A stretch of DNA of 64,000 nt from a virus (IMGVR_UViG_3300034103_001027:42834-106833); one strand, 5' to 3'; shown: positions 34,213 to 54,970, counted from the stretch's first letter. A program made the numbers and translations. Notes: generated by a model from the letters alone, not told the origin.

Positions 34213-36677
34213 TCTCCTTGTAAGCCCTAAGTAACTTGACAGCCTTCTCGGACATATTCAGTGCGTCATGGTGTGCCGTTAGCCCCCTGACAGTCATCTC
34301 TTCCATTAGCCTCCATGTGAAGTACCCCATTGCCTCTTCTCGCTGGTCGCTGTAGAAGTAGTGACCGTTGATCCACTCTGCGCTTCCTAGTGTATACAGT
34401 GACACAACGTACCCTGCGCACCTGCCACTGCCGCTTCTCTGCTCGACAAGTATTAGGTGTACAAATTCGTCAGGCGCACCAAGCGCACTGTACGGCGCAA
34501 AGGCCACTAGGTTGCCGGATGCCTTGTAGTTAATCATTGTCGCTCTCCTGGATATGAACGTGTTGTGATTGCGCGGATATGTACTGTCCGTTGCAGCATA
34601 TCACTGGGCCTCCATGATCCCACCCAACAAGCCGATGCATCGCCCTATTGTTGCCAGGCTCGCTGCCGTACTGAACCAGTACGTCAGTCCTTGGATTCAC
34701 ATCGCTTGGGCGAACTGCTCTCCACTTTTGTGGTCGATACCTCCGATAACTCCTCTCTTCCCCCCACTCAATAGGCTCAGTGAGTTCGCTGTCAGTTAGC
34801 GCGATTATGTTATTGCCGATGGCAATACGAGTAATGCTATCGCTCCATCGCCACATCTCATCGACCTTCATCACTGCAGACAGTCCCTCAAACGCTTCCT
34901 TTGGTGTCATTACTTAATCTCCCTTGTTAAGTTCTCACAAGCCCTGAGTGCCTCTCGTAAATTCCACCAGTCTTGATACCACCTGTATCCGTCTTCATCT
35001 ACAGGATAGTCATCATCGTGATTGTCCTCATCCACATAGACAGCACCGACGTCCATGTGATTAGCCATAACCTCTCTCGCCTCTTCCATGAGTATCTGAA
35101 ACTCAACTGGAATGTTCATCTCCTGTCCCTTTCGTAAGATTCAAATGTATCGTACCCATAACACGCAATCATCTGATCCATCATGACACTCATGTGCCCG
35201 GAACTTGCTGTGCCGCCGAACCCCTCGTCCTTTCTGTCGTTGTAGTTCTCAGCGAGCTTAGCCATCAGTTCCAGCGTGTCACTGAGTAAGTACTCCGTGT
35301 CCTCCTCAAGGCACTCCAGCACCTTTATGATGCACTCGGTTATGAAGATCCCTTCGTAGCACTCTGGATCATTGCCGTTCTCTTGTAGGAATAGTTTCAT
35401 ATTACCAACATCTCCTTGAATGTTTTAAGGATCTCTTTACCTAGACTAGTAGGCGTGTACTGCTTGCCGTCGAAACTCGCCAGACCTTTGCGAGCCAGCG
35501 AGTCCATGGCCCTCTTGGTTCCAGATGGAGTATCCCACACCCACCCGCAGCAGTCGTGCCACTTTCCACTATCGACCAATGACCTAAGGACAGCCACTTG
35601 AATCGCTCCGACACTGACCCCATGCTTCCTCTTGATATGGTCCAGGTTTTTAGCTTGCTGCACGTCCACCAGAAGCCTATTAACGTACCCGATCCAGTAT
35701 CCCGCTGCGCTGTCACTAACACTGCGACTCTCGATAGTGCTCTGTATGAACTTCAGTAGCGAAGTGAGCTCCGCGATGTCTATTGAATACTTCATGCTTT
35801 ACTCACCTCCTTAACCGTCTCGACCCACTTATCGCTTCCCATTATTTCACCATCAAAGATAATATATTTCTTTAGTATCTCCTCTCCGATCCTTGCTGCA
35901 TCCTGGCGAGACTCAGCCTCGACGATCCTTGTCTCAATGTAAATCTCCTTGCGAACAAACTTGATCTCATACTTCTTCATCTGACTCTCCTTCTCTTCTT
36001 GCTTGACTTAACCTTGCACGGAAACTTCTCGTACACCCAATCCTCTAGTATCTCAAAGTCCTTCGTGGATATCCTTCGCGCCTCGTGCTCCTCATGCAGA
36101 TTCCTGATTACGTACAGCAGCCGATCTCTCTTGTCCTGTATCATCTTCAGGTTGCCATCGCACTTAATGGCCTGCTTGAATCTTTGTATCGTGCCCATCA
36201 CTTGCTCCTTCTTGTTACTTGATATTCCCTGTCGAAGACGACCACCTCGTCCTCGTATACAGTGATCCTATTGTCTTCCTCGTCGATCACGACCATGCAA
36301 GGAATCCCACGCATAATCGTCTCGACATTCAAGTACTCAACACCTTCTAAGTGAACTTGATTTGATTCCATTACGGTACTCCAAGTTCTTCTGACAGATC
36401 GTGGTCGTAGTTTGTACTGCCGTCATCGTTAACTCCGTAGATAGATACCTCTGTTGGCCTTTTCGTGTCAGGCTCAATCTCAACACCCATGTCTTTCTCG
36501 AACCTAGAACCGTCCATGAGTTCGCAGTGGAATACACCCCATTTAATCCACCACTCCTTAATATCTTCAGTAGTCTTTCCCTCTGGCAATTCTACTGACG
36601 CACATGTGCTGCAGTAGTAAGTCGCATGTACTATAAACTCATTAATCGCCTTCATTTGCATTCTCCTTTGTGTGAAA

Positions 36678-37148
36678 CTACCGTCGTGATACACTGACCT
36701 TAAGTGACTCCATTATCCGATTGGCAATGTCGTCTGTGTCAATTCCGACACGCTCAGCGAGGTTGTCGTAGTCGATGTGTATGCTCTCGGCCAGTTCGGC
36801 ATAGTCCAGGTCGATGTTGCTTGCGATATCCTCTTTATCCAACTCAAGACACTCAACCAACTCCCTGTAGTCGACTTCAAGGTATCTAGCTAGCTCGCTA
36901 TATTCAAAACATAGGTTATCAGCCAGCTCTCTGTAATCGATATGCCTCGACCAGTTTATGTCCTCAGTGGCTCTCGTAACTGCATCATCTATAGCTACCG
37001 AATCTAGACCCTTGCTGACTTCACGGCGCATGACTTCTTCAATATCGATTCTATTGATTCGAGATTGAATCTCTGATGCAATCAGTTGTTTGACGCACGC
37101 ATCGATGCGATTCGTGATGAATGATTTAAATCGTGTGAACATGTTCAT
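36678..37148 (-). CDS. Acidic protein with about 11-aa IDYxELA repeats
   Basis: IDYRELA / FEYSELA / VDYRELV / LDYAELA / IDYDNLA / IDTDDIA. Confidence 0.65.
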   Translation of the reverse strand: MNMFTRFKSFITNRIDACVKQLIASEIQSRINRIDIEEVMRREVSKGLDSVAIDDAVTRATEDINWSRHIDYRELADNLCFEYSELARYLEVDYRELVECLELDKEDIASNIDLDYAELAESIHIDYDNLAERVGIDTDDIANRIMESLKVSVSRR

Positions 37149-37684
37149 TTGTCTTCTCCTTTTGAAAATTGTTTACTATCCCGCAGGTACTTCAGAAGGG
37201 CGACCGCCTTCTTGTACTCAGCCTGAATCGCCAGATCCTCTAGTGCCGCATGCCCGTCAAGGGCCTTGCACAGGTCGGACATGGAGATCAGTACGTCTCG
37301 AATGCTTGTCACCATATCGATGGTAACGCCACCAATAGTGACGCCACCCTCTACAGTGAGCATCCCATCTATGACGGTGATCGTGTGCTTCACTTCTCCT
37401 CCAGCGTGTACGTGACTGCTACGTCGTCCATGGTTTCGCTAATTACCGCACCCTCGGACCTCAGCACTGCGAGTACGCTCTCAAATGCCTTCTTGGTGCA
37501 GTCAGATATAGCATCAACTGGAACAATTCGAACTGGTCGGCCACTCATGAGATCCTCTACGTGTCTAGCGATGTCACCTGCAGGCCACCCGAACGTCATG
37601 AACATCGCCATCTCTTGCCTGACGATTTCACTTGACACCTCATTACTTAGCTTCATATTGATTCTCCTGTCTCTTAAGAGACGG

Positions 37685-38644
37685 CTAAACATTAAAGAAC
37701 TTTCGCAATCTCTCGTGACCGTATTGACCTTTCGTCTTCTCAATTATCTGCTTGACCGTGTACTCCTTTCTCTCATGCCCTGCGGACTCGACGAACATTT
37801 GGCAGCCCATCGAGCAGGCCCCGGTAACTGACCTGTACAACTGAACGCACTTCTCGAACGGCAGCTTGTCGGTTAGCTTCAGGCCCTTGAACTCACTGGT
37901 GTCCCTCGGTGATAACTTGTAGGCCAGGGACTCACGCGCTTTCTCGATGGTCTCTCCGTGAGAATAGTTCTCCCCGTCTGTTACGAGATACGAAACCTTG
38001 CCGTCGATCTGGCGTAGTTTGCGAATACCAAACTTCTCGCTTATGACTTCCGAGAAGACACCATCAACCTTGATGTACTTGCCGTTCTGCCAAGACAGGA
38101 GTCGAACATCGCTTCCTATATGGCGACTGTCGCCCTGCAGGTGTAGGTCTCCACCAACCGTAGGATTAAATCCTTCCGGCAGGCTGGTAACACTCCGCAG
38201 ATATAGGTTTCCACCAACCGTAGGATTGAATCCTTCCGGCAGGCTGATAACCCTCGACAGGTATAGGTCTCCACCAACCGTAGGATTAAATCCTTCCGGC
38301 AGGCTGGTAACGCTGTGCAGGTAAAGGCTTCTACAAACCGTAGGATTAAATCCTTCCGGCAGGCTGGTAACACTCCGCAGGTCGAGGTATCCACCAACCG
38401 TAGGATTGAATCCTTCCGGCAGGCTGGTAACACTCCGCAGGTCGAGGTCTCCACCAACCGTAGGATTGAATCCTTCCGGCAGGCTGGTAACACTCGACAG
38501 GTATAGGTCTCCACCAACCGTAGGATTAAATCCTTCCGGCAGGCTGGTAACACTCCGCAGGTCGAGGTCTCCACCAATGGGCTGCCTCCCGTCGAACTGC
38601 TCGTCAGTAATATTGAATTTCTTGCAAAACTCTTTTCGATTCAT
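37685..38644 (-). CDS. Leucine-rich-repeat-like protein with seven 20-aa repeats
   Basis: GGDLxLxSVTSLPEGFNPTV x7. Confidence 0.85.
   Translation of the reverse strand: MNRKEFCKKFNITDEQFDGRQPIGGDLDLRSVTSLPEGFNPTVGGDLYLSSVTSLPEGFNPTVGGDLDLRSVTSLPEGFNPTVGGYLDLRSVTSLPEGFNPTVCRSLYLHSVTSLPEGFNPTVGGDLYLSRVISLPEGFNPTVGGNLYLRSVTSLPEGFNPTVGGDLHLQGDSRHIGSDVRLLSWQNGKYIKVDGVFSEVISEKFGIRKLRQIDGKVSYLVTDGENYSHGETIEKARESLAYKLSPRDTSEFKGLKLTDKLPFEKCVQLYRSVTGACSMGCQMFVESAGHERKEYTVKQIIEKTKGQYGHERLRKFFNV
38140..38576. repeat. 60-bp tandem repeat (about 7 copies), coding
   Basis: Repeated 'ccaccaaccgtaggatt(a/g)aatccttccggcaggctggtaac' at 60-bp period. Confidence 0.95.
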
Positions 38645-41600
38645 ATTGATTCTCCTGCCTCTTAAGAGACGGCTAGTGTCCTAATTTCCTCGAACTCGCA
38701 CTCGCTGACCCCATTGATCCTTAACCACTGCACATGCTCGTACTTCTTGTAGAGTTCATCTCGAATCTCGTCGGCACTTGCGTGGCTACTTAGGATCACT
38801 TGGTCGGCGATACGGTAAAACAAGCCGGACGCATTAACCTTGCGCCCTGTGAATTCGCATTGATAAATCATGTGTTCTCCTTTTTATAATGCGACATGCC
38901 GTACATGGCAAGTCTGGGTCACCAGTCATACTGTGGAAGTTCTTCGTGCAGCGGACCATCCGCATCGAGGACCAACCATTTGCAATCATTGTCCTTGGCT
39001 ATACGAAGAAGCCTCGCAACATTCGTGACACCAAAATTCTCAAGAGCACTAATCGTCTCCTCGAAATCCGGTGGTGTGTATATTCGCCATCCATATTCAT
39101 ACGGGTAGCATATTATGTACTTATTAACCCTACTGCACTTATCTTGGAGCGCTGCGCTTTCAAGTACATTGATATGTGCAGTGCTGAAGACAATCTCTTT
39201 GTTGATTTCGTAGTTCATATTCGCTTCCCTTCTTCTGTAAATTCGTATTCGTTGCAAACGATATTCTCAGCAACATTCTCGTCACCCATCAAGTAGTCGT
39301 ACTCCCTCTCAAGGCTCTTGTACAACCAGTGCGCAAGGTCTCGGAAGAGATCAAGCAAGTCGTCTTCGACGGTTGGCTCAGTGATATCCTTGCCGTCCCG
39401 CCCTTCTATGTAGTCAACGCTCATTGTGTACGCATGAACACCCCTGCCACCCTGACTCACTCGGGCCGTCAGTTGATACATGTACGGCTTCTGTATCGAC
39501 TGCAGTCCTTCGCCTATACGCAGTAACTCCTTGTCATTGCAGTACGCGAGGAGCTTCTTCTTCCAGCCAGGCGAGTACTCATAATCCCCGGCCCAGGATG
39601 CTCCATCACCCTGCGAGCAGAAGCCGCTAAAGTAAATCACTGGCTTGTACACAGGTATCTTAGCGCCGTCTTTTCCGAGACGGTAAGTGCAGCTTGTTCT
39701 TTCGCTCAGGGTGATACCGAGTATCTTCGTGATCGCAATGAAGTCATCGAAGATGCAATCCCACCACTCGTCGTATGGGTAATCCCCCCCTCGATACCAG
39801 TCGCGAGCATTGGCTTTTGCTGAATCGCTAAGCTCCTCGTAGGTGTAGACCTTCGTCTCAATCGTTCGCATGGCTCTCCTCCGTTCTCTGTATTGGCTCG
39901 ACCTTAGTGACACGCAGTCCACCGCAGATTGTCTTGGCAGTCACCTGATGTGAAGGAGCCCTGCCTTTCGAAAATGGATTGGACTTCCACTGAACCTTGA
40001 TGCAATCTTCATCGTGCGATATCCGCACAGTCGTCCCAAGGCATGCGCCGGGGTACTCATTGCCACCGCTGACAATGCCGTTCTCTATGGCGCGAGCAAT
40101 CCTTAGTAACTGCTCGGCACTCAACTTAATACCGTTCATTACATCCTCCTAATCGAACCAAAAGTAAAGCCTAATTGCAGACACAATGAACTCATCTGCT
40201 TGATTGGCGAACCTACTGAAGTCAGCCAGAGTTTCTTTACTGTACTCCCCGACATACTCCAGTCCCTCGATAGTCACCCTGTAGTCGTCTCTTAGGTGAC
40301 TGATGGCGTAGCCATGGGCCGTAAACACTGGGTTGCTCTCCATAAATTTAAGCATCTCCGAGGCAGTTGGCGCACTGTTCTGGTGATCCTTTCCTTCAAT
40401 GAACTTCTCATCGAACAACTTCTTCAATGTCTCTAGGGTCATACCCCTGAAACTCTCGCAGTCGCCGACCTCATCTCGGCCAAAGATAATCTGATTCCGT
40501 CGCTTGTAATCTTTATTTAACATCAGTATTCTCCTTAAATATCTAATCCACCACGCTGAAATAAAACCACCTTCTTGGGATGCTCGATCTCGTGCGAGCT
40601 TTTCATTCTTCTGCCCCTGCACTTTCAATGAACTTCTCCCTTGTCAACACCTGAATCACTACAGACATATCCGAAGCCAGCCCCCTGGGTGATATCGGGC
40701 CAGTTGGCACCTCCTTCAGAGTGCAGTTCGGCCCGTATGGTAGGATGGTCAGTTGACCAGCCCAGCTTGACCCAAAATCATGTGCTTCCAGTAGAACCCA
40801 GCCATCAGGCCGGTACTCATTCAGTTGCACCCCAAGACGCCGTGACAACTCTGGCGGCTCAATGTCTTGCTTGCCGCAGTATGTTGCGATAAACGTCGAA
40901 CGGTCCACGTATTCCATCATTCTTCTCCTGTTTCTTGTGGTACATTCGCCTTACATGGCAAGTTGTTGATACAAAAATCATACGCATCAGAAAATCTGTC
41001 GTCGCTTCGCACCATGGAATCAATCTTATTGACCCACAGAACAGTGACCGGATGTTCCCTCAGCGCATCGCCATAGACACCATGGCCCTTTAGGTCCGAT
41101 AGCGCCCTGGAGAATCCATTAGCTACCGCCATAAGATTGCAGGCGTCTTGGACCGATAGGGCGTCATCGCATAGTTCAGGTATTGGTTTCATTGACATGA
41201 GTCCTTTCTAAAGTTGACTTCATTTCGAGGATACAGAACATGTATTCATCATGGGCAACTGGCCGCCAGTTCTCCACGAGATCCTTCAAGACCATTGGCC
41301 CTGTGCAGAATCTCCCTTCATGGAAGTAGATGATTTTCTTTGTTTTCTCGTGGACATACGAAGGACAGAATCCCCAGTATTTCCAGCACCCAGTAATTGT
41401 GTAGCCATACCTCGCCATGTCTGGGATCTTGCGGAACCCGTCAATAGCATCCGCCTTGTAGTACCTGCGACGGTCAGCCATCACATCCATCCTTTCTCTT
41501 TGAGGTGCTGCTTAATATCCCTATAGGTGCAGTTGCTTAGTCCTGGCCAGAAGACGCTAAACATAGTTCCGTACTCAAGCTCTGCCTTGCACGCACCTCC

Positions 41601-44600
41601 TCGCCACCACCCGCAGTAGCCGCAACTACTGAACTTAATTCCTGCATACCGTGCGTACTGCACCATAATGCAGCCGCACGTATCGCCTGCCAAATTCTCA
41701 CCGAATCTAACCTGTCGGTCGTCCGGCTGCTGCTGAATAAACTCGATCATGTCTTCCCTGGTTACTACTTTCATCACTGCTCTCCCTTCGTCTCTTTAGA
41801 GACGGCATTAGCTTTCTCTTGAACGTACGACATGGCGTCACACCGAATCGTCGGAACCCCACGAATGATTGCCATTGCTCCTCCACCGAACTCATCAGTT
41901 CGCATTTTGCTACATGTGTATGCCCACGAGCAGAAGAATGGGTCATCGATCTCAAGCTCCTCAATTAACTGTCGAGCAATCGCGTCGACTGTAATCGGAC
42001 AGAACGACTCGTCTCCGATGAACAGCACTCCATCACCCTTGATCTCAATCTCCACTCCATACTCAAGATAAGACTCGTATTCGTCCTCACTTTCTCCGTA
42101 TTCTAGACATACAGATTTAGCCGCCTCGATCTTCGCTCTCTCAATGATCTCCTGAACGCGAGGCATCTTGTCTTTTGGTATCTCCATGAATGAACTGCTT
42201 TGTGAATAGTTATTGGCCATTTCATCTCTCCGTTTGTAAGGGTTAATTCCGCCACGAACCATCTCTAAAAAGACGGTTATATGGCAAGTCACCAGCGTGC
42301 CCACTCAGGCAACGCTTCGTAAGTTTCCTGCGCCAACTCTTCATATCGCATCGCCCATGGAATGTCGCCGCCAGTCCTCTTGGTTCTCGCCTCAAGGGAC
42401 AGCGAAGCGTATTGGCGTAGTTGTTTAACTGCATCCATGGCTTCCTTTCCTTTGCCAGGGAACATGACCCTAGCTTCAGTCATGGGCCGATCCCACATAG
42501 ACCGATAGAACCCACGCAAGTCCTCCTCGTCCATCCCGTCCAAGTTCGGGCTGCCAACCCAATTCCTGGACTTCTTCCTCGGTGTCGCCTTAAGTTCCTT
42601 AAGGTTCTCCAGTGCCCACTTTCGCATCGCAACAGCTTCGCTTCCTGCGCTATTGTGTCCGCCCCCATTATTCCAGGCGTCGTATAGTTCATCAGGAAGT
42701 TCCAAGCCGAACCGGCAGTAAACGTCATCCGGCACTGTCTCTGGTAATCCATCTGATCCATACGACCCAGATAGCGTCGTTTGGTAGTCACCCAGCTTCG
42801 CGCTGCCCATCATGAAGTGCCCGAATTGCGACATCTTCACGAAGCGAACTACACCCTTGAGCTTTCTGTACTTTTCGCTCTCGCCTTGCATGAGAATCAA
42901 GAATTCTCCGTGAGCGAACTGCTCTCCGCTGCTAGTATATCCTCGCTTTGTTGTTGTTACGAACATTAGTTGCCCCTCCAGTCGAGGTCTTGTGTTATGC
43001 AGATAGAACGGCGTCGCGTTAAGGCGAAACCAGCGGTCAGGCAGTCGTTCACATCAGCGGAAGTGTACTCGTTCCAGGTGGTAATGTATTCTTCGCACAG
43101 TTCCAGGAACTTCTTTTCTGCGGACTCATAGTCGTCGAATAAGTAAGCCTCTTCTAGTAAATTGCGGTCGATGATAACTACTAGTGTCTTATTCATGATT
43201 AACCTTTCTGCCGTCTCGAAAAAGACGGCCCGTGATGATAGTCTATACTTCCCCTACGATCTCAAGATCAGGGAAGCTTGGGATCTCTAGGGACCGAATA
43301 AATTCCTCAATTGTCGTACTTGGATCGCGTGCTTCAAGTTGATCCAATGGGATCAAGATACGACCTGATTGAGTGGCGTTGAACATTGCAATACCATTTG
43401 GCGTGTAGTATTCAACGTGCCCATCAAGCTCGTACCTGGTGTCCCGTTGAATCAAGATGGAGGCTCCAATTTCAATACAATACGCAACAGTGTCGTTGAA
43501 ATCACTTTGAGTGCATTCGTAGAAGTACCCGAAACCATCATCACCTAAGTCGCCTTCAAGGCACGGCGACAGCAAGCACTCGATCTTCTCTAATTGCTCC
43601 TGCGTTACCTTGCCGCCAATGTAAACCGATCCACTAAACCTGTCAGCCATGTTACACCTCCTCCCTGTCGTATGTATCACAAACCCCAAAAGCTTCTGCC
43701 GCATCGTCTGGATTCTGCTTAAGGTACCTAACCCTCTGCTGTAATGCGTCAATTAGCACGCCAACCGGAACATCCCTCGGTTCTTCGCAGTCGTGATTGA
43801 CTGTAAACGCCACGTCAAACATGGTGTTGTATCTCATCGCTCTCTCCTTAGTACTTGGATTTCTCTTGCCAAACAAACTTAACGCCTTCCGGTAGGTCGG
43901 CTGTCTGAAACTCTGCCACAATTGGAGCCATTGCATCGAACTGCTCCTTCGTTATCCTCCTATCGGTGCTAGTCCAATTGACCGTCACCTCATTAGTGTG
44001 GTTGTAGTAAATGTAGTTGATGCCGCTTCCGAACTTGTCAAGCATGAACAACTCAATATCACGGTCGATACGAAGCTTCTTGGACTTGTTATCAAAGTCG
44101 CAGAGAATCTCAAGCCGCTTCTGCGCCTTAAAGCGAGCTTTCTTTTCGGCGTCTCTTGCGGCGATAGATTCAGGTGAGTAGTACCCAGTTCTCCTTCTCT
44201 CAGCCACCAATTCCCTCATCTCTTTCGAGACGGGCTTGTAGTGCTTTCTTGTGGCTTTAGACTCGAACTTCTTGCCGGTCCACGCCTCAAGCTGGGCAAT
44301 AGCGGCATCTGCCTCTTGCTTCCATCTCTCGACAATACCCGTGTCCTCGAGGAGTATTTGAATCTCCTCATCGGATCGGCACTCAATGAATGCAGGAAGC
44401 TCAGCATCGGTCAGCCTGAGCGACTCCTTGAAGATGCGCAGGCACTCCTCCTTGCTCTTTGCCCAGCTTCCACTGCCACCGTGATACTCGACCCAGGGGG
44501 CACCGAGATACCCGGCCAGCCAGTACCACGCATTGCCTCCATGCATTGGGACGCCTTCCCAATCACACAGGTGAAGGTCAACGAACGGCTTGAGTTCTGG

Positions 44601-44846
44601 CCTGACCGAGAGTATCTCCTCGTGGCAACAGCCGCCACCAGCATCGACCCATCGACCTCGACCGTCCTTCTCTTTGATGTTTGCTGTTACAGAGAAGTCC
44701 TCATGGCCATTCTTACAGTCATCGTCCAGGGTTATTCGAATGTCGAACAACCGGCCACCCTTCCTCGCCACGATACTGTGCCGCAGGGTGTTAGTCGTTT
44801 CAGTTGTTTCAGTCATTTCATCTCTCCTTCGTCTCTTTAGAGACGG

Positions 44847-45008
44847 TTAGTGCGTCGTGACATTGCATTCGTACTTGCCTATCAAGTGCGATAATGCTTG
44901 GTTGGCATTGGGCCAGCTACACCAGCCCATGCCGTTCTTGTAAACAGAGCCGGACATGAAGATGTGATACACATCTGGTCCGACTCGAACTGTATAGATC
45001 AAGGTCAT
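44847..45008 (-). CDS. 53-aa gene (MTLIYTVRVGPDVYHIF...) bracketed by identical palindromes; not in the ORF track
   Basis: Hand-translated; AAGGGG RBS follows the palindrome, and the TAA abuts the next palindrome. Confidence 0.6.
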   Translation of the reverse strand: MTLIYTVRVGPDVYHIFMSGSVYKNGMGWCSWPNANQALSHLIGKYECNVTTH

Positions 45009-45315
45009 GCCATTGCCCCTTTCGTCTCTTTAGAGACGGTTAGTACATTTGGTCAGCCAATTGACATCGCAGTTCCTGAGCCAGGTCCAGGCAGTTTGAG
45101 CTTCTGTACACGCCGACATTCGCCCAGTACTGATGCAAGTACGCACCGCCACTAAAAGAGTTATCGCCGGTCTGGTAATCCCAAGAGCCGTCCTTGTCAG
45201 CTCCAACGGTTAGCTGTATCCCTGGTTTGTCGTCACCCTCGAAGGCAAGATAGTCATCCTCGATGTACTTCTTGATATGGCGACACAGCTCGTAGAGTTC
45301 TTTGATTGTTGGTTT

Positions 45316-45477
45316 CATTTGCTTTTCCTTAGTGAGTAGACTGATTCTCCAGGTGGCCAGATGCATGGCACGAGATACAGCGTGACGCCGCACTTCGGGC
45401 ACGTAATAGTCTCTGGTTCGGGCCAGCCAGGGACATTGATCATTTCTTTGCAGGCACCGCATGATTGACTAGTCATG
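45316..45477 (-). CDS. 53-aa zinc-ribbon protein (CGAC...CPKC); not in the ORF track
   Basis: Hand-translated; ATGA overlap at its start, and its stop overlaps the start of the next gene. Confidence 0.55.
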
Positions 45478-46510
45478 CGACGCCTCTGTCTCTCTTGCGA
45501 CGGTACGCTTACGCCTTATCCGGGTCACTAGGAACGTACATTCCCAGCTCTCCTCGTCACCGCTAATAAGCGCCGCTTCCCACATACAAGGGCGACACCA
45601 TAGCCTCGTTCGTTCGTCAGCCTCCCTGATAGCGGCCTGGCACATATTCTCAAGCCAACCCTCGCTACGGTCGTACAGGTCAGACGGAAGCTTCACTTTG
45701 TATTTATCCTTAACAGTGCTCATGCTGTTCTCCATGAAGTTGTTGGCGCTTCTTCGATGGCGTAACGTGTGCCATCGTCAATCAGAACTAGAGCCTCTCC
45801 AGGGAAGAGATCAGGCTTGCCGATGCAGATTGAGCCATCGGCGATCTTGGAATTTACAAGGGACATAATGTCCCCGAGGGTCGCGTCGTCCTCGTAGTCG
45901 CTGTAGTACACACAGGCTTTCGAGAAGGACACGAAGTGATTAGTGCCGTTGGTCATCAATCATCTCCTCATTAAGGGTTATATGGCAAGTCCTATCCGGA
46001 ATAATAGCGACAGAGACTTGAGGTCTGTCGCCATTCATGTTGATACCTACGACCCATCGGTGTGACTGGCACCCCGAGAGGAGGAGGGTAAGTAGCAGTA
46101 ATCCTTTACGCATGATAATCCTTTCTATTTGATCCATGAAAACTCATAGGGCCATTGCGACGGACTGCATGAATCGTGAATGCGTTGGTACGACCGAATA
46201 AGATCCCTATGACTCTCTGGCAGGCCATATATGGTAACCAGTCGATCCCAGGTGTGATTCTCGAAATCCACGTTGTACTCATCGTCTCCGATGAGGCATC
46301 CCGCCGCACACTTGAGGGTCTTACCGTCTCCTTCGAGATGATAGCGACATATAGCACCGGCTACACATCGCTCGCCCTGAGCGAGAAGATGCGCCTCGAT
46401 CTGTGCCTTAACCTCTTCCCGTGTTGCAAGGTGCAATGTCTTTAGCGTGATCATGATTAACCTTTCTTGTTGATGATTGCCGTCTCTAAAAAGACGGCCT
46501 CTTGCTTATA

Positions 46511-46552
46511 CAAAAACTTGCCATACAACGCAAGAGTGTTATATGGCAAGTC
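46511..46552 (-). terminator. Hairpin built from two inverted copies of the TTGCCATA motif, followed by T5
   Basis: Minus strand ACTTGCCATATAAC-ACTCTTGC-GTTGTATGGCAAGT-TTTT. Confidence 0.6.
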
Positions 46553-48771
46553 GATTCCAAAAATTACAGCAGGAACTCAGTCGTAGTCCCGCATACGATC
46601 CACTTGCCAACCTTGTAGTCCAGCGTGCCGCATGGATGGCGATGCGGGACAAAGACCACAAGGTCTAGGTACTGCAAGGCCAGGAACATCGGGCTATCCT
46701 TGGGCATGTCGACTGGAATTGATTCATGCGCTGGCCGCCAAGCGCCCTTCCACACTAGGCTTCGGTATGTATCAATAATCTCTTGCCTGGACAATCTAGC
46801 CCCGGTCTTTTCAAGGACGACTCTAATCGCCTCTCTAACCCATTTAGCGCGAGACCGACCGGCAGCCGCTCGATCTACTGGCTCTATGACGCAATTTACG
46901 TGCAGGTTTCTTTTGCTGGACCCAGCCCAATACCCGCATCCATCCCTGGACGCAGTGAAAAGCTCTCCATGCAGCCAGAACTTGTCGCCTGGCGCGAGCA
47001 ATCCAAACCGATAAACTGGCTTTATTTTTTTCGTTCTCATGTTTCCCTTTCACTCGTCTTTTTAGAGACGGTTGATTGTTGTTGCGCATTTTCCCTAAAG
47101 CAAATCCTGGATCTCGTCAGCTAGGCGATACGTGTACTTCAGTTCCTCGTCAGATGCCCACTGCATGATATATGCAGCGGTAACCCCTTTCATACTAATG
47201 CCACCACCGTGGGCCATCAAAAACTCGTCCACAATAGCCCTCATGGCTTCATTGAGATGCACCCACTGTCCGCCCACTGGAAGGTTCAGTGCTTCCGTCT
47301 CCTTGGCGCTAAACAGATCGCAGGAGGCGATGTCGCCCCAGCCGTCTGCATTAGACCAAAACAACATTACGTTGTTTTCCATGCTTCGAATCACATAGAT
47401 CATGGTTTCCCCTTCGTCTCTAAAAAGACGGTTAAGTGTTATTACGGATTGTCTCTAGGTTAAGACATGGATTTCGAGCGATTGTGGACAGAGCTGCCGT
47501 CCGGGTAGATATTGAGCCCAACGTAAAACGCCGGGAGCACTCGCCGATCCTCTCCTGCGGCCTCTGCGGCCAATCCCCTGGCAATGTCATCCAGGATACT
47601 GTACTGGCAGCCATCTTTGCAGATATTGGCGACAGTGACATTCCTTGGGTCAAAGCCTTCAGCCCGCAGCAGACCAACGACACTTCGCACGGGGGTTCTA
47701 CTTAGCACCTCAGGCAGGCGGTACACGAAGCTCGTGCTGTTGACTGTAATCTCAACTCTCATTTACTTCCCCTTCGTCTCTAAAAAGATGACTCTTAGCC
47801 CAGACGGACCTTCCGCCCGGCTCTCTTGAACACGCCGCCAACGGGTCGCTGCCGACCCAATTCGGGGCAGGCCGTAATGACCCAGCGCCCGTTTGGTTGC
47901 AACACCACGCGCCCAGGCCCAGCCGGAACCGGCCTTTTCAGGCTAGCATGTTCCATTGCCACTAGGCCCAACGCCTTCCTGGGTGGCATCCCATAGTGGG
48001 CACACATTGCCCGTATGGATACCCAGTGCCCATAGTATGGACAATTCATAGTAACTTTCCTTATACCAGGAGTCCCAAAACGAAACAAGCCAACAGCCCC
48101 GATAAGGCAATTGGCTAGCGTCGTCTCGAAAAAGACGGACCAAGGTCGGCGCGCACCCCGATGATAGTCCCCTTATGATAGTCCGCATCTTGCCGATTCA
48201 CCCGTCCCCAAGGCAGCCGCTGACCATCGGGCCAACCGCTGCTGTGTAGGACAGGTGAATCGTTTGAAACAACCGTCTCAAAAAAGACGGGTCAATCCCC
48301 AATCGGAAGTCTGGTAGTGCCGAATTCGGCGAATCCAACAAACGTATAGTTCGCCAAGGCTTTCACGCTATCGCTCCACTTCCGGCCATCCACGCCCAGG
48401 TCGTTCAGAATGTCCAAGAACACTTCGGCAGTCGCGCCGTAGTGACGATGCGTCTCAGCGTATGCCTCCCAGTAGAGGTTGCCAATCGCATCAAAGCCGA
48501 CTAGCACTTCAACTGGGCGGATATAATCCGGGTGTTCACACAGATACTTAGCAGCCATTTCGATTCCCCTTTGTTTCTAACCGTCTCAAAAAAGACGGCT
48601 TGCACCAATTACGGATTTTCTCCGTGGTGCTTTTGGTCCAATTGAGACAATGGAAACAAGTGAAACTTGCTTCCCCTACGCAACAAACGTAGGCTAACGA
48701 ATCCCGTAGGATACATTAGCCTACGCCGCCCCCCTAGTTTGAGGGGCGGAGAAGGTTATATGGCAAGTCGA

Positions 48772-49542
48772 TTAGGCGACTTCAGCGGTAGCCGCTGCAA
48801 AAGCTTCTCGAGCCATCTGATCTACTTCAGGGGCAAGCATTCCATCCAGCCAAACTGCCTTGTCGGCAAGGGCTTGGCTTACCACTAGATCGAACACTCT
48901 ACCGCTAAACTCAGGGCCGCCAGCCTTCAGCCAGTCAGCGATTAGCAGCAGCTTGTCATTGGTATCCGCTGGCAGGACCGCTGGAATAGGCGACTCAACC
49001 GTCTCTTGAGAGACGGTTGGATTGCCAGTCGCACTCTCGGGCTGCGCTTCCTCAGCCTTCTTCTTAGACTCAATCGCCCCTACAGCCTTAAGCTGCGCAT
49101 TCATCTGCTGGTTGAGCAGATTGCCAACGCTCCGCAAGCGGTTCCCGATGCACTTGCAATCCAATTCCCACTTGCGATACGCTTCGGCGTCTGCTGGAGA
49201 CGGGCGTACTTGCATGCGCATTTCCCGGACAACTAAGTCCCAATGGGCGTAGCTGGTCCATGCAAAGCCGCACTTGGCGCTAAACACCCCTTGGCTGACG
49301 TCGCGCTTCTTCTTCTTGGCAAGAGACTTCAGCGCTTCAACAATGGTCTCATTGCAAGACCAGAACGCCTTGATACATTGCAGCTTGTCGGCGCTCGCCG
49401 TATCAACGGTCGAGTCCGCAAACACTTCCCGCATGAATGGCTCCATCATCACGACGCGCTCACTGTCAGTCAGTCCATTCTCAATCTCTTGTGCCAGCAT
49501 ATCCCTAACGGCACTCTCGAACTTGGTCAGATTCTTGCTCAT
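48772..49542 (-). CDS. Hypothetical 256-aa protein, first gene downstream of the large structured RNA
   Basis: AAGGAG RBS overlaps a palindrome; a second palindrome lies inside the gene. Confidence 0.7.
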   Translation of the reverse strand: MSKNLTKFESAVRDMLAQEIENGLTDSERVVMMEPFMREVFADSTVDTASADKLQCIKAFWSCNETIVEALKSLAKKKKRDVSQGVFSAKCGFAWTSYAHWDLVVREMRMQVRPSPADAEAYRKWELDCKCIGNRLRSVGNLLNQQMNAQLKAVGAIESKKKAEEAQPESATGNPTVSQETVESPIPAVLPADTNDKLLLIADWLKAGGPEFSGRVFDLVVSQALADKAVWLDGMLAPEVDQMAREAFAAATAEVA

Positions 49543-49639
49543 TGCATTCTCCTTCGTCTCTTAAGAGACGACTAAAAACGGTTCGGCAGTATAGCGAAGG
49601 TGCTTGTCTGCTCTCGATTCACTCGACTTTGCAAGAGAA

Positions 49640-50340
49640 TCGAAAGCAGCCCTTGCACCAATAAGATACAAGGGCTGCCATTTTTAGTTTCTAGTTATGG
49701 TGAGAGTCGATGCCCCGCAGCAATCCAGACCCTTTTGGGGTACTGGTTGTAAAGCGCCCATATTGCCGCTTTACACTTCCCGTAGATAGCCCCTGCGATA
49801 CTTTCCGCCTATTTAATCGCGCCAAATTGTAGGCTATTGCTCACGCTAAAATCGGTTTCTAGTCTCCGATAGTGAATACCCGCTTTCCTAGTGTTTTGCC
49901 AGAACACCAGGCGTAAGAGACCCCCTTGATAGGTGGTGCATTGAATATCCGGCCTTTTATTGGCGACTACACGCCGCCTGACTACACGCAATAAACGCTA
50001 GAATCCGCATCATATCGCTATGAATGCGTTAGATTGTCGCGCTATCTACGTCGTAACATTTTATTGTTACAGCCCCCCGCTTTTCATGGCCTTCCTCAAG
50101 TCAGGGTTTCGCAGGGCGGTCAATACTAGCCATCGGTCTTGACAAGGGTAGTATTCCTGGAGCACACGGTTGGGTTTCCCCCAACTCAGTGACTGGTCCT
50201 AGTTTATCGAAAACTCGACTAGGACCCCGCTGATAATCTGCTATCGCAGCTTTCTGTCGCGATTACCGATGCGACAACCTAACATCATATGGGACAATCG
50301 TTCCTTGCATGCTTGTGTTGCTGTGATGCTATTTCCAATT
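49640..50340 (-). ncRNA. Candidate large structured ncRNA (about 620-700 nt) with a pseudoknot
   Basis: No credible ORF; more than 12 hairpins; long-range crossing helices; GNRA loops and G-U wobbles on the minus strand; upstream promoter and downstream terminator-like hairpin. Confidence 0.7.
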
Positions 50341-50347
50341 GCCTAGC

Positions 50348-50377
50348 ATTGTGGCAACTAAACATCGTATGGAACAA
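50348..50377 (-). promoter_or_regulatory. Putative promoter for the large RNA (TTGTTC-N18-CACAAT, extended -10 TG)
   Basis: Immediately upstream of the first hairpin; a palindrome copy lies at 50399-50416. Confidence 0.4.
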
Positions 50378-50786
50378 GTGAAACAATGGTTTCGGTTGTC
50401 GTCTTAGAAAAGACGGCTTGTGGCTTGTATAAGAATTAAGGCGAAAAATGCTTTTCAACGTGCTAATGGGGCGAATTTTCACATTAACTTTCAGTTTTGA
50501 GCGTCGTAAGTGCTTATTTGACAAGGGGTTACGAAAATCAGCCAGGTGATAAAGGGGTGGGACGGACCATTTGTCTTGTAGATATATATTGGTACAGCCC
50601 CAAAAATTTTTCACGATTTTCAAACTCCAATTCCCCTCTTTTAGTGGAGCATGCGAATCAAACGAATCAGGATTGGGCTAGAATCGACGCTGATCGAGCC
50701 TTGACTCTTTACACCTAATCACCCTCAAGTCGCTTCCTGACGCGAGTTAGGGGCCTTCTTGAGCGTTTGATGCGACCTGAGGGTCT

Positions 50787-50962
50787 TGAAGGTGCGAAGT
50801 AGGTGGAAGCACCAATTGCCCCTTTCAACGCTTTACGGGGCAATCTGATGCGTTTTAGGGCATCTATAGCCCCACGAGCGTCTTGTGGGGTGTTAGGTAC
50901 GGTGAGGAAGACGGTGATTCGGTGGTGAAGGTGCGGAATGGGTGGAAGTACCAATTGCCCCT
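50787..50962. repeat. 37-bp imperfect direct repeat (50787-50823 / 50926-50962)
   Basis: tgaaggtgcg...ggtggaag(c/t)accaattgcccct occurs twice. Confidence 0.8.
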
Positions 50963-51175
50963 AGCGCATTTGATACTGATCCCTGGTGTCCTTCTTGCGT
51001 TCCCTAGGGTTCCTTCCTGCCTTTCTTCACGGGATGCCTCTTCCCTTCTGCTCCTATTGCTTCGCTTACCCCTTGAGAGGCTATTGCTTGGCTATTGCCT
51101 CTTTATGGGGCTTGTTGAAGCAACTTGGAGCTATTAGTTATATGTTGCACCTTATTTCAAATGTGTACCATTATT

Positions 51176-51203
51176 TTGAAAGTCAATGAGGGAATCATAT
51201 ACT
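51176..51203 (+). promoter_or_regulatory. Promoter TTGAAA-N16-TATACT
   Basis: AT-rich region directly upstream of the second structured element. Confidence 0.65.
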
Positions 51204-51209
51204 GTTGCG

Positions 51210-51491
51210 CGTTTATGTCTCTATGTAGTTTCTAAGCAGGCCGCCCAGGGAGGAGGCAACCAAGAAGGGGCCTGGTTCACGCTGCTTTATGTCTCAAATG
51301 ACCTATTTTAGATCTCAACTGACCACAAAAGAGACGGAAAGCAGCCATTCAAACCCTTAATGGCTCGCTGGACGCCCTTATGTACCCCTAGAACGGCTTG
51401 AGACCCGATTAGTGCATGGAATCTTGCCATTAAGGTATCTGAAATAGACCCTAAATACACCAACAACTGGGTTGCCGAGTAGATTTTATGG
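51210..51491 (+). ncRNA. Candidate structured ncRNA (about 270 nt) with two pseudoknots
   Basis: Three stems plus two loop-to-downstream pairings; G-U wobbles on the plus strand; has its own promoter. Confidence 0.6.
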
Positions 51492-51521
51492 CGTTTTTCG
51501 CCAGAAAGAGCATCGAGGGAC

Positions 51522-51549
51522 TTGCCATATACCGGAAGGTCGCTAAGAT
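51522..51549 (+). promoter_or_regulatory. Promoter TTGCCA-N16-TAAGAT
   Basis: Conserved motif upstream of a GGAGG RBS and ATG 51599. Confidence 0.65.
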
Positions 51550-51598
51550 TGGTGTGAATTGGGGTTTCAGGAGTCTATTTAGCTTGGAGGCAGCACAG

Positions 51599-53650
51599 AT
51601 GGGGCGTGTTTGGAAGCGAGCGGGTATTGATCTGGACGCTCTTATTGATGCTGAGCGCGCTGCTCAGCTTAGCGGTTATGACCTGGATGAGGATGCGTTC
51701 TATGCCAGGCTCTGCGAGGCCACTAAATGCGGTGCAGTCAGCGCCCCAGAAGGGGAGAGATACGACTGGTACACCGATGACGAGGAGTCCGAGGGGCCGG
51801 AAGCCGCCCCTGAGCCCGAAGATGCCGATAGTGAGTCATGGTGCTGGCATGGGCATCCCGACAGGGGGGAGCGGATTCGTCGAGTCCAGGCGTATACAAA
51901 GATACACGCCAAGCACCGGGACATCTGGGACATTGACGCTGAAGACCTAGAGATCCTAACTGCAGCCAAGGAGGAGGTCCTCATGCGCTGCAAGACATCC
52001 TATGGGGTCATGTACGTCGTGGAGGACTTTGGGGTCAGCGAAGTGAGTGTCCGGTGGGTCGTTAAGTGCCACAGGAAGAATCTGAGGGCTGGTGATCCAG
52101 ATGCTCTAGCGCTTGAGAAGGCGATTCAGGACAGAATGAAGGCGGCTGGCGGTCCCAAAGGCATGAGGAATGCAATGAAACGCAGACGTCGTTTTGATTT
52201 GAGTGTAACTAAGGGTATAAGGCAAGTTGCTTCAGCGTAGCAGGGAGGCTGAGATGGCTCAAGCGATAGTGATTTGTGCTTTTGTGTTGGCTTTTGTGGT
52301 TCAGGGGTTATTTGTACTAAGAGAGGGCAGTGATCATGAAGATTGAAGATATTAACGCAACGCTCCGCAAGGACGTAGATGTGCTTTTTATGGATGCCAT
52401 GGCGGCTCGCAGAGCCTTGGGTGAGGCTATGCGGCGTGTTGATGGCGTCCTGGAGGCGATTGAGAAGATCGAGAAGCTCGAGGACGCAATGCTTATTCAC
52501 AGCCGGAAGACCGGATCAGCATTGAACCTTACGCTGCCTAATGCGCCGGAAGGTGCCTATACCAGCACTTGTGGCGATGTGCAGCTTTGGTTCGACTGGG
52601 CCAATAAGGATGATGGAGTTTGGCCGTAAATACTACGGCTTAGTGCGATTTCTTAACAAGGAGTTTTATATGGTACATGGATTAGAAGTCATCAAGGCAA
52701 TGAATCACGAGGCTAGCGCGCCTGACAAGTTGCAGGCTGAGATCGTAGCTGCGGAGGCGCGCAGGTTATACGAGGACTTGCCTACCTTCCGGTGGGGCTC
52801 GGCAACTACATTTGTGAACGCTGGCGGGAGGCTTATTCGCATTACCATGTCAATTGTCGATGATGCAGATGGCATTATCCGCGACATGGGCGGGCGAAGA
52901 GTGACTGTCGGCAGTAAAGTGCGAGTCCACCAAGAAGACGGAATCCGCACTGCCGTTGTTCACAAGCTCCAATTGAACCAACCGACCAAAAACGCACCGG
53001 GCTACTGGGTTGATATCGATTCCGGCGAGGGGCTAGAGGGAATGCCATCATATCTCCTGGAGGTGATTGATGACTGACATAGTAAAAGCCCTCAGAGATC
53101 CAGAAGGATGTACCGCAGGCGACATAAGCGAAGCGGCAGATATGCTGGCATTCTTCTTTCTTATGATGCAAATACACTCCCCGAAGGGGAACAATCAATA
53201 CAGTTTCGTGTTCCATAACGGCTGGCCAACGACGCTTTGTGTTGGCAGCGGCCCGCAAGAAGCTGTTCGGGCTGCGATTCGAGATATCAGAACGAATATT
53301 GGTGAGTAACAATGAATCGTTATGTAATAAAAACTGAACGCACTGGCGAGTCAGGTGAATGTCATTATGTATGGGCGAAATCCAAAGACCGCGCTGTCGA
53401 ACTCTTTAAGGAATTACACCCAGACGCAGTGGCGAAAGGAGCATCCTTGACAGTGACCAGTGACAGACTAGATCCACCGGCTGGCCTTCACGACGAAGAC
53501 ACTCCAGATGGCGCGCTCAGCGAGCGTGAGAAGATGCTTGGGCTACTACGGCAAACCCTCGACATGATGGAGCGATGCAAGTTGTACGGCCCACTAAGGC
53601 GAGATATCAAGTCAGTCCTAGGTCTCCCGCAGAGTACATCCAAGCCATGA
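51599..53650 (+). CDS. Rightward operon of hypothetical genes (51599-52240, 52330-52629, about 52670-53077, 53067-53309, 53312-53650)
   Basis: Co-oriented ORFs with RBSs leading to xis. Confidence 0.6.
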
Positions 53651-53865
53651 CTCTTCTTGACACTAAACAAGTCCACCAGATCACAGGTTGGTCCCTAGAC
53701 AAGATCCGCTCACTCATACGATCCGGTAGACTCCCCGCTGTCAATACGAGTTCAGGGAGGCGTCCTACGTTCTCCATACGACGCGATGACCTTGATCGGC
53801 TCATAACACCAACCGAGCCTAAGTCGCACAGAAGAACGCGACAGAGGGCTCCTAAGGTGTTTTAA
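53647..53865 (+). CDS. xis: Excisionase-like HTH_17 protein
   Basis: 'LLDTKQVHQITGWSLDKIRSLIRSGRLPA...SIRRDDLDRL'; convergent with int. Confidence 0.8.
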   Translation: MTLLDTKQVHQITGWSLDKIRSLIRSGRLPAVNTSSGRRPTFSIRRDDLDRLITPTEPKSHRRTRQRAPKVF

Positions 53866-54970
53866 GGAGCCATGATCGAATGTGCAGACAGACCTTCTTG
53901 ATTCTCTCATCGCTAACCTGTCTGTACCTTGAGGACATATCCGATGCACTTGGGGTATGCCCCATACAGAACGAGACAGCGGGGAAGTCCATTGTCTCGT
54001 CTCCTACGGTCTGAAATGTCCTGCGTAGGTCATAGAACGAGCCTTTCTTGAGCTTAGCGGCGATACGAGCCTTTCGAAACATTTGCGTCCCTGCGTCTTG
54101 TGAGTCATGTTGCCACGGAGTGCCATGCGAAGTTAGCAATGCGGCACTTAAGTGGCTTGACTCTTTTCGACGCGAAATGGACGCCTTGATGGCCTTGATT
54201 GTTTCCGGCCAGAGATAGATTCTCCTTGGGGTGCCGGTTTTATTTCTAGGGCAGTTGAGCCACGGGAGATCCTCTAGCTGATCTAGTGTTATCCTTGAGA
54301 TGTCACCTACTCCCATTCCTCCGTTGATACCTAAGTACACTACTGGTAAGAAGTACACATTGCATTTGGATAGGATGGATCTGATGTGGCTTGCGGGGAG
54401 CGGCCCAGAGGAGGATTGATGCCTTTCGAGGCGAGTGATCCTTGAGCTGAACTCAGACAATGCGCAGCCTGGTTCCGCTGGCGGGAGGTACTTTGAGTTC
54501 CTAAGCCAGTTTAGAAACGCCTTGATTCGGCGGATGTCACCATTGACTGTAACATGCGATCTCTTCTGCACCGCGCCGCGACCACCAGTTCCCTTCTTTC
54601 GAGAGACCGGCTCCAAGAGCTTCACCTTGATTCTCTGATAAGCATCCTGATTCCAACTCGCTGGGTCGCTGGTCCTCCCCATAACACCACATAGCCGCAC
54701 AAGAGTCTTCTTGACCTCTTGAAGCGACCTGTCGCTAAACTCACCTATTGCGACCTGTTGCTTCTTATGGTCATAGTACAGATCGGCAAGTTCATGCAGA
54801 GGAAGGTCCGGTGAGTCATCTATCTTCCCGAGGCCAGCGCGAAGATTCTCTTTGGACTTCGAATAGGACAAGAGAGCCTTCTCGAGGTCTGTACCGAAGT
54901 AGTAAAACTTGCCATTGATCTTTTTGCACCACTGGCCGCTGGTGTGCCTGCAAAGCGGTAAGTCTCCCAT
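53852..54970 (-). CDS. int: Tyrosine integrase (planctomycete-type)
   Basis: 'GQWCKKINGKFYYFG' arm-binding domain; RNKTG, YDLRRT, MGH and catalytic RY; adjacent to attP. Confidence 0.9.
   Translation of the reverse strand: MGDLPLCRHTSGQWCKKINGKFYYFGTDLEKALLSYSKSKENLRAGLGKIDDSPDLPLHELADLYYDHKKQQVAIGEFSDRSLQEVKKTLVRLCGVMGRTSDPASWNQDAYQRIKVKLLEPVSRKKGTGGRGAVQKRSHVTVNGDIRRIKAFLNWLRNSKYLPPAEPGCALSEFSSRITRLERHQSSSGPLPASHIRSILSKCNVYFLPVVYLGINGGMGVGDISRITLDQLEDLPWLNCPRNKTGTPRRIYLWPETIKAIKASISRRKESSHLSAALLTSHGTPWQHDSQDAGTQMFRKARIAAKLKKGSFYDLRRTFQTVGDETMDFPAVSFCMGHTPSASDMSSRYRQVSDERIKKVCLHIRSWLLKTP

Follow-up and report, generated by a model that had tools for sequence, protein, structure and literature searches.

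Twenty-one copies of a private 18-bp palindrome in one leftward gene block of a viral contig: candidate sites for a dimeric DNA-binding protein

Here, we describe an 18-bp palindrome that occurs in 21 copies in a 64,000-nt stretch of viral DNA (IMGVR_UViG_3300034103_001027:42834-106833), hereafter called the window. The copies span positions 37667-50416, and the whole of this 12.8-kb block runs leftward, with every gene on the minus strand. The palindromes are candidate double-stranded DNA sites for a single dimeric, sequence-specific protein that would silence the block. We give this reading about an even chance, and we infer the binding, the binder and the silencing alike from the sequence. 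Arrays of this kind have already been described in other phages, where their mechanism is still unexplained. The window comprises bases 42834-106833 of a linear IMG/VR viral contig of 106,833 bp, which has an estimated completeness of 77%. Coordinates are those of the window unless marked as genome.

The initial annotation had reported about 20 copies of CCGTCT-N6-AGACGG within 12.8 kb, with conserved arms around a variable centre and with no full copy elsewhere in the window. These claims are borne out. The exact motif has 6 matches, while none was found in 100 shuffles, so that its frequency is far above that of shuffled sequence. When up to 2 mismatches are allowed, there are 22 matches compared with 2.05 +/- 1.43 expected. 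Twenty of these 22 lie inside 37667-50416, and the remaining two, at 13281 and 54592, look like chance matches. An additional copy at 47774 has 3 mismatches and the same context as the other copies. The weakest two, at 45486 and 46324, could be chance matches or decayed sites. The more precise form YCGTCTY-N4-RAGACGR has 14 exact matches, where 0 are expected. In the whole 106,833-bp contig, there is no copy with at most 1 mismatch outside the block.

The conserved information is limited to the 18 bp of the palindrome, and none was found in the 40 nt before or the 30 nt after it. The spacing of the two hexamers is invariant, with 22 sites at N6 vs 0-8 at any other spacing. The rule Y-CGTCT-Y is common to both half-sites; of the substitutions in the 42 half-sites, 33 are transitions and 1 is a transversion. 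A/T makes up 88% of the central 4 nt, which on the coding strand are T-rich in some copies and A-rich in others. Operators bound by dimers classically look like this, with conserved arms at a fixed distance and a free A/T centre between them. We favour a protein that reads the DNA because of the fixed spacing, the single half-site rule, the A/T centre without strand preference, the perfect copies inside genes and the restriction to one block. Such a dimer would contact one Y-CGTCT-Y half-site on each side of the A/T-rich 4-bp centre. Moreover, the sites are confined to one block of a 107-kb genome, and therefore a regulon mark fits them better than a general mRNA device.

According to the initial annotation, most copies follow a fixed order of stop codon, palindrome, ribosome-binding site and ATG; this order stands for about half of the copies, not for most. 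Eleven of the 21 are located 9-14 nt before a start codon, with the Shine-Dalgarno (SD) sequence beginning 0-1 nt after the right arm, and for 4 more copies the start codon is 22-38 nt away. An in-frame stop codon of the upstream gene adjoins 6 copies; the TAA next to copy 42259 is out of frame with the upstream gene and was not counted as a stop. Four copies are within open reading frames (ORFs), two are in non-coding DNA, and 17 are outside ORFs or at ORF ends. The palindrome yields to the SD at its outer right-arm base, which is A, not G, where the SD follows directly (A18). The site-bearing junctions are about 30 nt long, and the other genes of the operon overlap or abut. This ordered arrangement says little on function, because any 18-bp insert must show such an order in so compact a genome. 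Tight packing would leave only the gaps between stop codon and SD, or tolerant protein loops, as places where an 18-bp site is harmless, and genome packing may thus have produced the whole arrangement.

Two of the intragenic copies can be described in terms of the encoded proteins. Copy 39666 encodes YRLGKDG in a variable, gap-bearing loop of the conserved phrog_5162 protein. Copy 44216 is located just past a full-length phrog_17696 domain (residues 1-186 of a 190-position profile) in a 322-aa ORF, and it looks like a fused former junction that has lost its stop codon. Since there are perfect copies within genes, one of them in a variable loop, the site appears to be kept independently of translation starts.

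The block shows no excess of promoter-like matches (16 vs 14.5 in shuffles) or of terminator-like matches (16 vs 12.4 in shuffles), and a T run is absent at most copies. Of the five motif copies listed by the terminator scan, only 48273 was picked on the coding strand, and the other four were picked on the opposite strand. These results speak against intrinsic terminators, which have a G+C-rich stem ahead of a T run on the transcribed strand. A roadblock or silencing role is proposed because the sites are inside transcription units and not at promoters. Once occupied, the sites would act as successive roadblocks or as a silencing coat and shut down this whole block of small accessory genes together, either in a prophage state or after the early phase. 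A phage gene or, with lower probability, a host gene would encode the protein. The short homologies of the repeated junction modules would, as a by-product, allow single genes to be gained, lost or swapped.

Several observations weigh against a silencing protein. There is no helical phasing between the sites. No convincing promoter was found that overlaps any copy, and a repressor acting at initiation is therefore unsupported. The search for a binder of the palindrome identified none, and the 33 ORFs of the block matched only DUF5983. The control region of the XRE gene contains no copy of the motif, and no ParB domain was found in the ORF at 18466-19419 (-). Furthermore, the contact with the SD in 11 copies, together with A18, would suit an RNA-level role too, and positions 7 and 12 are C-G or U-G in the sense strand of 19 of the 21 copies. 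The initial annotation had named the XRE protein, the ParB-like ORF and a 256-aa ORF as possible binders of an operator-like array. The anatomy fits such an array best, but all three binders are unsupported. The supposed ParB-like ORF has weak matches to HTH_11, Sigma70_ECF and HTH_23 (E ~1e-3) and is annotated in PHROGs as 'HTH DNA binding protein'; no ParB family is among the 25 of 35 Pfam families listed. A parS/ParB centromere array was rejected, since this ORF lacks the ParB N-terminal domain. No fold or family could be recognised for the 256-aa ORF, a 250-aa ORF at the head of the block likewise gave nothing, and a search of the ESM Atlas with the candidate binders returned no usable match.

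The palindrome could instead act in the sense mRNA, as a hairpin of 6-7 bp with a 4-nt loop directly 5' of the SD, and this we regard as rather unlikely. It could be a mark for a phage RNA-binding translational repressor or for an endoribonuclease that would turn off the early block, much as RegA and RegB act on early mRNAs in phage T4, or it could passively stabilise and insulate each cistron. Besides the position of 11 of the 21 copies immediately before the SD and close to a start codon, such a hairpin would account for the toggling of position 7 between C and U while G12 is kept, which leaves the 7-12 pairing possible, and for A18, which keeps the SD unpaired. Every copy is transcribed in the sense orientation within one block, and 2-4 copies come shortly after -10-like elements, where they could fold into hairpins at the 5' end of a transcript. 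However, the hairpins are equally stable in sense and antisense RNA (mean -7.9 vs -7.6 kcal/mol; 10 vs 10), and roughly half of the substitutions (C1-A18, C2-A17, A3-C16) disrupt pairing in the sense RNA, while, with one exception, the changes are transitions within the half-site rule. The sequence is conserved and the stems show no covariation. The loops are free, U-rich and A-rich versions being mixed, and a stable tetraloop is present in only one of them. The four intragenic copies are not followed by a start codon, and RNase III needs a stem longer than 7 bp. The Rfam 15 covariance models gave no match up to E = 1 in 36000-52500. Selection for RNA pairing is disfavoured because it would be expected to leave stem covariation, stable loops and a strand preference. 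Hairpins that control each cistron, as the initial annotation had also suggested, are thus possible but not favoured over a dimeric DNA-binding protein.

The block comprises about 33 ORFs, unrelated to each other and nearly all ORFans; the only annotations are DUF5983 and two PHROGs of unknown function, phrog_5162 and phrog_17696. Because the ORFs are unrelated, the palindrome was not spread by gene duplication, and tandem paralogues carrying the repeat were rejected as its origin. Short repeats flank single genes in several places. A whole junction module is duplicated around a 319-aa gene, a 24-nt identical stretch is found on both sides of a 53-aa gene (copies 13 and 14), and identical 18-mers flank an 88-aa gene (copies 4 and 5). 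A 17-nt start region, AGAAAGGTTAATCATGA, is common to the genes after copies 43211 and 46480. Neighbouring copies are also more alike than random pairs (permutation p = 0.02).

The 319-aa protein, encoded at 37685-38644 (-), has 7-9 tandem 20-aa repeats of the PEGFNPTVGG type, with a 60-nt period in the DNA. Its close relatives, in clusters at >=90% identity, include length variants of 279 aa and 219 aa. In IMG/VR, relatives of the gene are present at 79 loci. The phages that carry them have a guanine plus cytosine (GC) content of 25-65%, and the relatives are often broken at contig ends by the repeats. None of these 79 loci shares another gene of the block. The gene is widely mobile, judging from its sequence relatives, because phages of such different GC content carry it and share no other block gene. 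Where relatives of the 235-aa or the 319-aa gene occur, the loci have no comparable palindrome array and share no further gene with the block. Repeated palindromes seen in the loci of the 319-aa relatives were rejected as an array, since they belong to the 60-nt coding repeats of that gene family.

These footprints bear on a further alternative, in which recombination is the main role and the copies are joints between gene cassettes, exchanged by a site-specific recombinase at 6-6-6 core-like sites or, like the PeSL elements of T4-type phages, through short homology. Besides the 38/41-nt module around the mobile 319-aa gene, the repeats that bracket the 53-aa and 88-aa genes and the likeness of neighbouring copies, this alternative can draw on the unrelated ORFans of the block and on the site exactly at a domain joint in the 322-aa ORF. 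We consider it improbable nonetheless. The arms are only 6-7 bp long, and the variable centres would stop tyrosine-recombinase exchange for most pairs of sites. The tyrosine-recombinase-like protein of the contig lacks Arg I. In addition, the repeats of Cluster O mycobacteriophages, which are the best-studied analogue, are not at indel breakpoints (PMC4351075). Since single genes have whole junction modules duplicated on either side, these modules probably serve as recombination joints too, at the least as a consequence of their repetition.

The initial annotation had also raised an integron-like system that shuffles single genes. An integron attC site is 57-141 bp long and has R''-L''/L'-R' boxes with a GTTRRRY core; the IntI active site is R-K-H-R-H/W-Y, and the system includes attI and a Pc promoter. 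Here, the unit is 18 bp long and GTTRRRY is found at none of the junctions. No IntI-type integrase was found beside the array, where the only tyrosine-recombinase-like gene is 3.4 kb away and its product has the Arg I position occupied by Gly and that of His II by Tyr. An integron was rejected on both grounds, the lack of attC features and of an IntI-type integrase. The integron tests thus failed, and what stands is a softer form of that proposal, namely modules duplicated around single genes.

The tyrosine-recombinase-like protein, of 372 aa, is encoded at 53852-54970 (-), and its structure was predicted at a pLDDT (predicted local distance difference test) of 88.6. The predicted fold has the full lambda-Int-like architecture, including an N-terminal arm-binding-like domain. 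In the structural ranking, lambda Int is the best match, while IntI4 is at rank 22 and the MrpR homologue SroF is at rank 26. When the family is aligned to XerA, all 25 members carry Gly in place of Arg I and Tyr in place of His II, while Lys, Arg II, His III and Tyr are kept.

This protein has a possible parallel in SPbeta, a large temperate Bacillus phage with a repeated element, SPBRE, in its early region. There, MrpR/YopR has a tyrosine-recombinase fold, has lost catalytic residues and has been shown experimentally to bind SPBRE as the master repressor, and the integrase is a serine recombinase (PMC10516654). Likewise, the contig described here has a serine recombinase and a tyrosine-recombinase-like protein without Arg I. 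However, SPBRE is located at about 10 promoter regions, while the sites here are within operons, and the 372-aa protein keeps Lys, Arg II, His III and Tyr and is nearer to full-length lambda Int than to SroF. The parallel is suggestive. By this analogy, the array and the Arg-I-less protein at 53852-54970 might form one system, with the protein as a master silencer of a block of accessory genes that would bind about 20 core-like 6-6-6 sites inside an operon, a combination we think has little chance of being right. In it, a protein derived from a tyrosine recombinase and widespread in Pirellulaceae genomes would recombine rarely or no longer, and residual strand exchange could turn the sites into gene-cassette joints. 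If this were true, the MrpR/SPBRE principle would have a second and independent example, from a phylum far removed and with its sites located between cistrons and not at promoters.

A host transcription factor could also be the target, with the array as a decoy or reader made of copies of its operator, or the palindrome could be a selfish REP/MITE-like element without a phage function. The failure to find a phage-encoded binder is consistent with these possibilities, which we rate as very improbable. Scans for the motif in viral, metagenome and genome collections gave single chance copies only, with unrelated flanks, and no IS200/RAYT-type gene is among the 25 of 35 Pfam families listed; both results argue against these possibilities. 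Three other candidates were rejected. An N4-type virion RNA polymerase with hairpin promoters was dismissed as the 4724-aa protein of the contig has no RNA-polymerase match. An ECF-type promoter with CGTCT as its -10 element was dismissed as there is no conserved -35 and the flanks are uninformative. Finally, avoidance of a restriction site (CGTCTC) was dismissed as there is no strong depletion outside the block.

A dimeric DNA-binding protein has also been predicted for the closest analogues of the array. Cluster O mycobacteriophages have more than 30 copies of a 17-bp repeat, TGTTCGG-N3-CCGAACA, with TTT or AAA centres in either orientation (PMC4351075). These repeats are densest in a leftward operon and a third of them are inside ORFs, and the authors predict a dimeric DNA-binding protein (PMC4351075). 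As in our contig, a private palindrome in tens of copies occupies a leftward non-structural operon, with invariant arms and an unoriented A/T centre; many copies are in short intergenic gaps, some are in ORFs and none are at promoters. The two arrays differ in geometry (7-3-7 in Cluster O and 7-4-7 here), in sequence and in host phylum. Moreover, the Cluster O repeats are genome-wide and are not tied to gene starts, whereas the copies here are confined to 12.8 kb and half of them touch the SD. Microbacterium phages of Cluster EG have 8-10 copies of an 18-bp repeat, GATCAACC-NN-GGTTGATC, 14-22 bp upstream of start codons, which the authors read, like those of Cluster O, as sites of a dimeric DNA-binding protein (PMC7302621). 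Here too, an 18-bp palindrome is found in short gaps at a near-fixed distance before the starts of leftward genes at one genome end, and in Cluster EG the repeats are conserved though the surrounding genes differ. In contrast to our array, the Cluster EG repeats are fewer, have another sequence and include no reported intragenic copies. Overall, the array has the features of the Cluster O and EG type: a many-copy palindrome with invariant arms in a non-structural operon, located in gaps, with few intragenic copies and none at promoters.

The proposed mechanism is taken from the stoperators of Cluster A mycobacteriophages, where binding of the immunity repressor has been shown experimentally, blocks elongation and silences genes (PMC9283540, PMC6550527). 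These are likewise many copies of a short site within transcription units, often at gene junctions. However, stoperators are asymmetric sites of 13-14 bp, bound by a monomer, oriented with transcription and genome-wide, and their repressor is known, while the site here is palindromic. The SAS/ESAS elements of Cluster K mycobacteriophages are also found in the non-structural half, immediately before start codons and sometimes overlapping the upstream stop, and their function is unexplained. SAS is 13 bp long, asymmetric and in one orientation only, and it contains the SD (PMC3203893), whereas the element here is a palindrome beside the SD. The initial annotation had taken the T4-type PeSL, in which a strong sigma-70 promoter is combined with a terminator stem-loop (PMC2839356), as the closest analogue. 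Both are short elements between small non-essential ORFans of a plastic region, with direct repeats that bracket single genes, but our junctions span some 30 nt and contain neither a promoter nor a terminator. The comparison may therefore hold for recombination, to judge by the junction modules duplicated within this one genome, and it does not hold for promoter or terminator function. The actinophage analogues are closer.

Table 1 Positions of the 21 palindrome copies and of the direct repeat that brackets the 319-aa gene.
Feature	Position	Strand	Description
Copy 1	50399..50416	-	coding strand CCGTCTTTTCTAAGACGA; non-coding leader at block head; no gene start within 45 nt
Copy 2	49554..49571	-	TCGTCTCTTAAGAGACGA; AGGAG directly after; ATG of 256-aa ORF at +11
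Copy 3	48999..49016	-	perfect arms; within 256-aa ORF, residues ~176-181
Copy 4	48581..48598	-	perfect arms; ATG of 88-aa ORF at +22; 18 nt identical to copy 5
Copy 5	48273..48290	-	perfect arms; begins 1 nt past TGA of 88-aa ORF; no start codon after
Copy 6	48121..48138	-	one mismatch (A18); intergenic; possible TTG start at +32
Copy 7	47774..47791	-	weak, 3 mismatches, TCATCTTTTTAGAGACGA; then AGGGG; ATG of 100-aa ORF at +11
Copy 8	47414..47431	-	adjoins TAA stop; then AGGGG; ATG of 102-aa ORF at +10
Copy 9	47054..47071	-	ATG of 158-aa ORF at +13; upstream flank matches that of copy 8 at 18/25 positions
Copy 10	46480..46497	-	perfect arms; ~17 nt past terminator-like hairpin with 15-bp stem; ATG of 109-aa ORF at +25
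Copy 11	46324..46341	-	weak, 2 mismatches; within 109-aa ORF; may be chance or decayed
Copy 12	45486..45503	-	weak, 2 mismatches including the sole transversion; intergenic; ATG at +9
Copy 13	45022..45039	-	adjoins TAA stop; ATG of 53-aa ORF at +13; 24 nt identical to copy 14
Copy 14	44829..44846	-	adjoins TAA stop; then AGGAG; ATG of 322-aa ORF at +12
Copy 15	44216..44233	-	within 322-aa ORF, residues ~195-200
Copy 16	43211..43228	-	perfect arms; ATG of 76-aa ORF at +14; start region AGAAAGGTTAATCATGA
Copy 17	42259..42276	-	one mismatch (G-T type); begins 1 nt past CTTGCCATATA motif; ATG at +38
Copy 18	41788..41805	-	final 10 codons of 176-aa ORF; then AGGGAG; next gene start 10-13 nt on
Copy 19	39666..39683	-	perfect arms; within 235-aa phrog_5162 gene
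Copy 20	38655..38672	-	adjoins TAG stop; ATG of 319-aa repeat protein at +10
Copy 21	37667..37684	-	adjoins TAG stop of 319-aa gene; ATG of next gene at +10
Direct repeat, arm 1/2	37647..37687	-	whole junction: TAG stop, palindrome, GAGAATCAAT, ATGAA; 38/41 nt identical
Direct repeat, arm 2/2	38635..38675	-	with arm 1 brackets the 319-aa gene

Nearly all genes of the contig are on the minus strand. Its gene content includes a large terminase (TerL), helicases, a serine recombinase, the tyrosine-recombinase-like protein, DNA methylases, PhoH, a primase-polymerase and a sigma-70-region-2 (Sigma70_r2) protein. The serine recombinase (475 aa, 11761-13188, minus strand) matched the Pfam Resolvase N-terminal domain in two separate stretches. 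Residues 1245-1387 of a 4724-aa polyvalent protein, encoded upstream of the window at genome 8140-22314 (-), match an ART-PolyVal ADP-ribosyltransferase domain. A search of the window for tRNA genes found none. The host is probably a planctomycete, likely of the Pirellulaceae, because several homologues of the tyrosine-recombinase-like protein are on 300-990-kb contigs named Aureliella, Rhodopirellula and Pirellulaceae; this one gene is the sole clue to the host. Searches of INPHARED with the DNA of the block by megablast and blastn gave no match, and neither did tblastn searches of INPHARED and PLSDB with TerL. In IMG/VR, the best TerL match has 41% identity and there is no near relative, while TerL homologues of up to 80% identity are present in JGI, Logan and NCBI data. 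Block proteins have copies of >=90% identity on contigs of 34,077, 66,572 and 78,094 bp, and a contig of 110,308 bp encodes a TerL of 79% identity and an integrase-like protein of 59% identity.

Other elements were observed in and around the block. A second motif, CTTGCCATATA(A/C)C, has 12 exact 11-mer copies in the contig. Nine are on the minus strand of the window (16971, 19456, 20946, 27729, 42278, 45979, 46540, 48757 and 60827), one is on the plus strand (51521) and two are upstream of the window, at genome 1499 and 32801. All ten copies in the window are oriented with the local genes, and most are in short gaps upstream of genes. This motif is a candidate promoter for a phage-specific factor, because the contig encodes a Sigma70_r2 protein. 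The block has a single strong intrinsic-terminator-like hairpin, at 46515-46552 (-), in which a T run comes after a 15-bp stem. A CTTGCCATATA motif overlaps this hairpin, and beyond it are a TATAAG -10-like element and, next, copy 46480. Since the hairpin, the CTTGCCATATA motif and the -10-like element are found together at this position, the block is probably divided into two or more transcription units. The segment 49600-51480, at the block head, is about 1.8 kb long and nearly free of ORFs, and it lies where transcription diverges. It contains a 42-nt direct repeat (50782/50921) and several inverted repeats and has no Rfam match. Exact copies of GGCAATTGG in the window are located at 50335, 50812 and 50951, plus one at 48106. 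The segment might serve as a regulatory region or as an origin, or it might encode a non-coding RNA.

The array opens no new class of system. Arrays of private palindromes recur in the accessory regions of large phages, as in Cluster O, Cluster EG and SPbeta, and in most of them the binder and the purpose are unexplained. The block described here adds a clean example from a phage lineage without a sequenced isolate, which probably infects planctomycetes. Sites that are inside operons and have no promoter of their own separate models of elongation roadblock or silencing from ordinary promoter repression. The half-site rule (Y-CGTCT-Y with fixed spacing and an A/T centre) is sharp enough for the design of binding and reporter tests. 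Furthermore, the duplicated modules around single genes make the link between regulation and gene shuffling testable.

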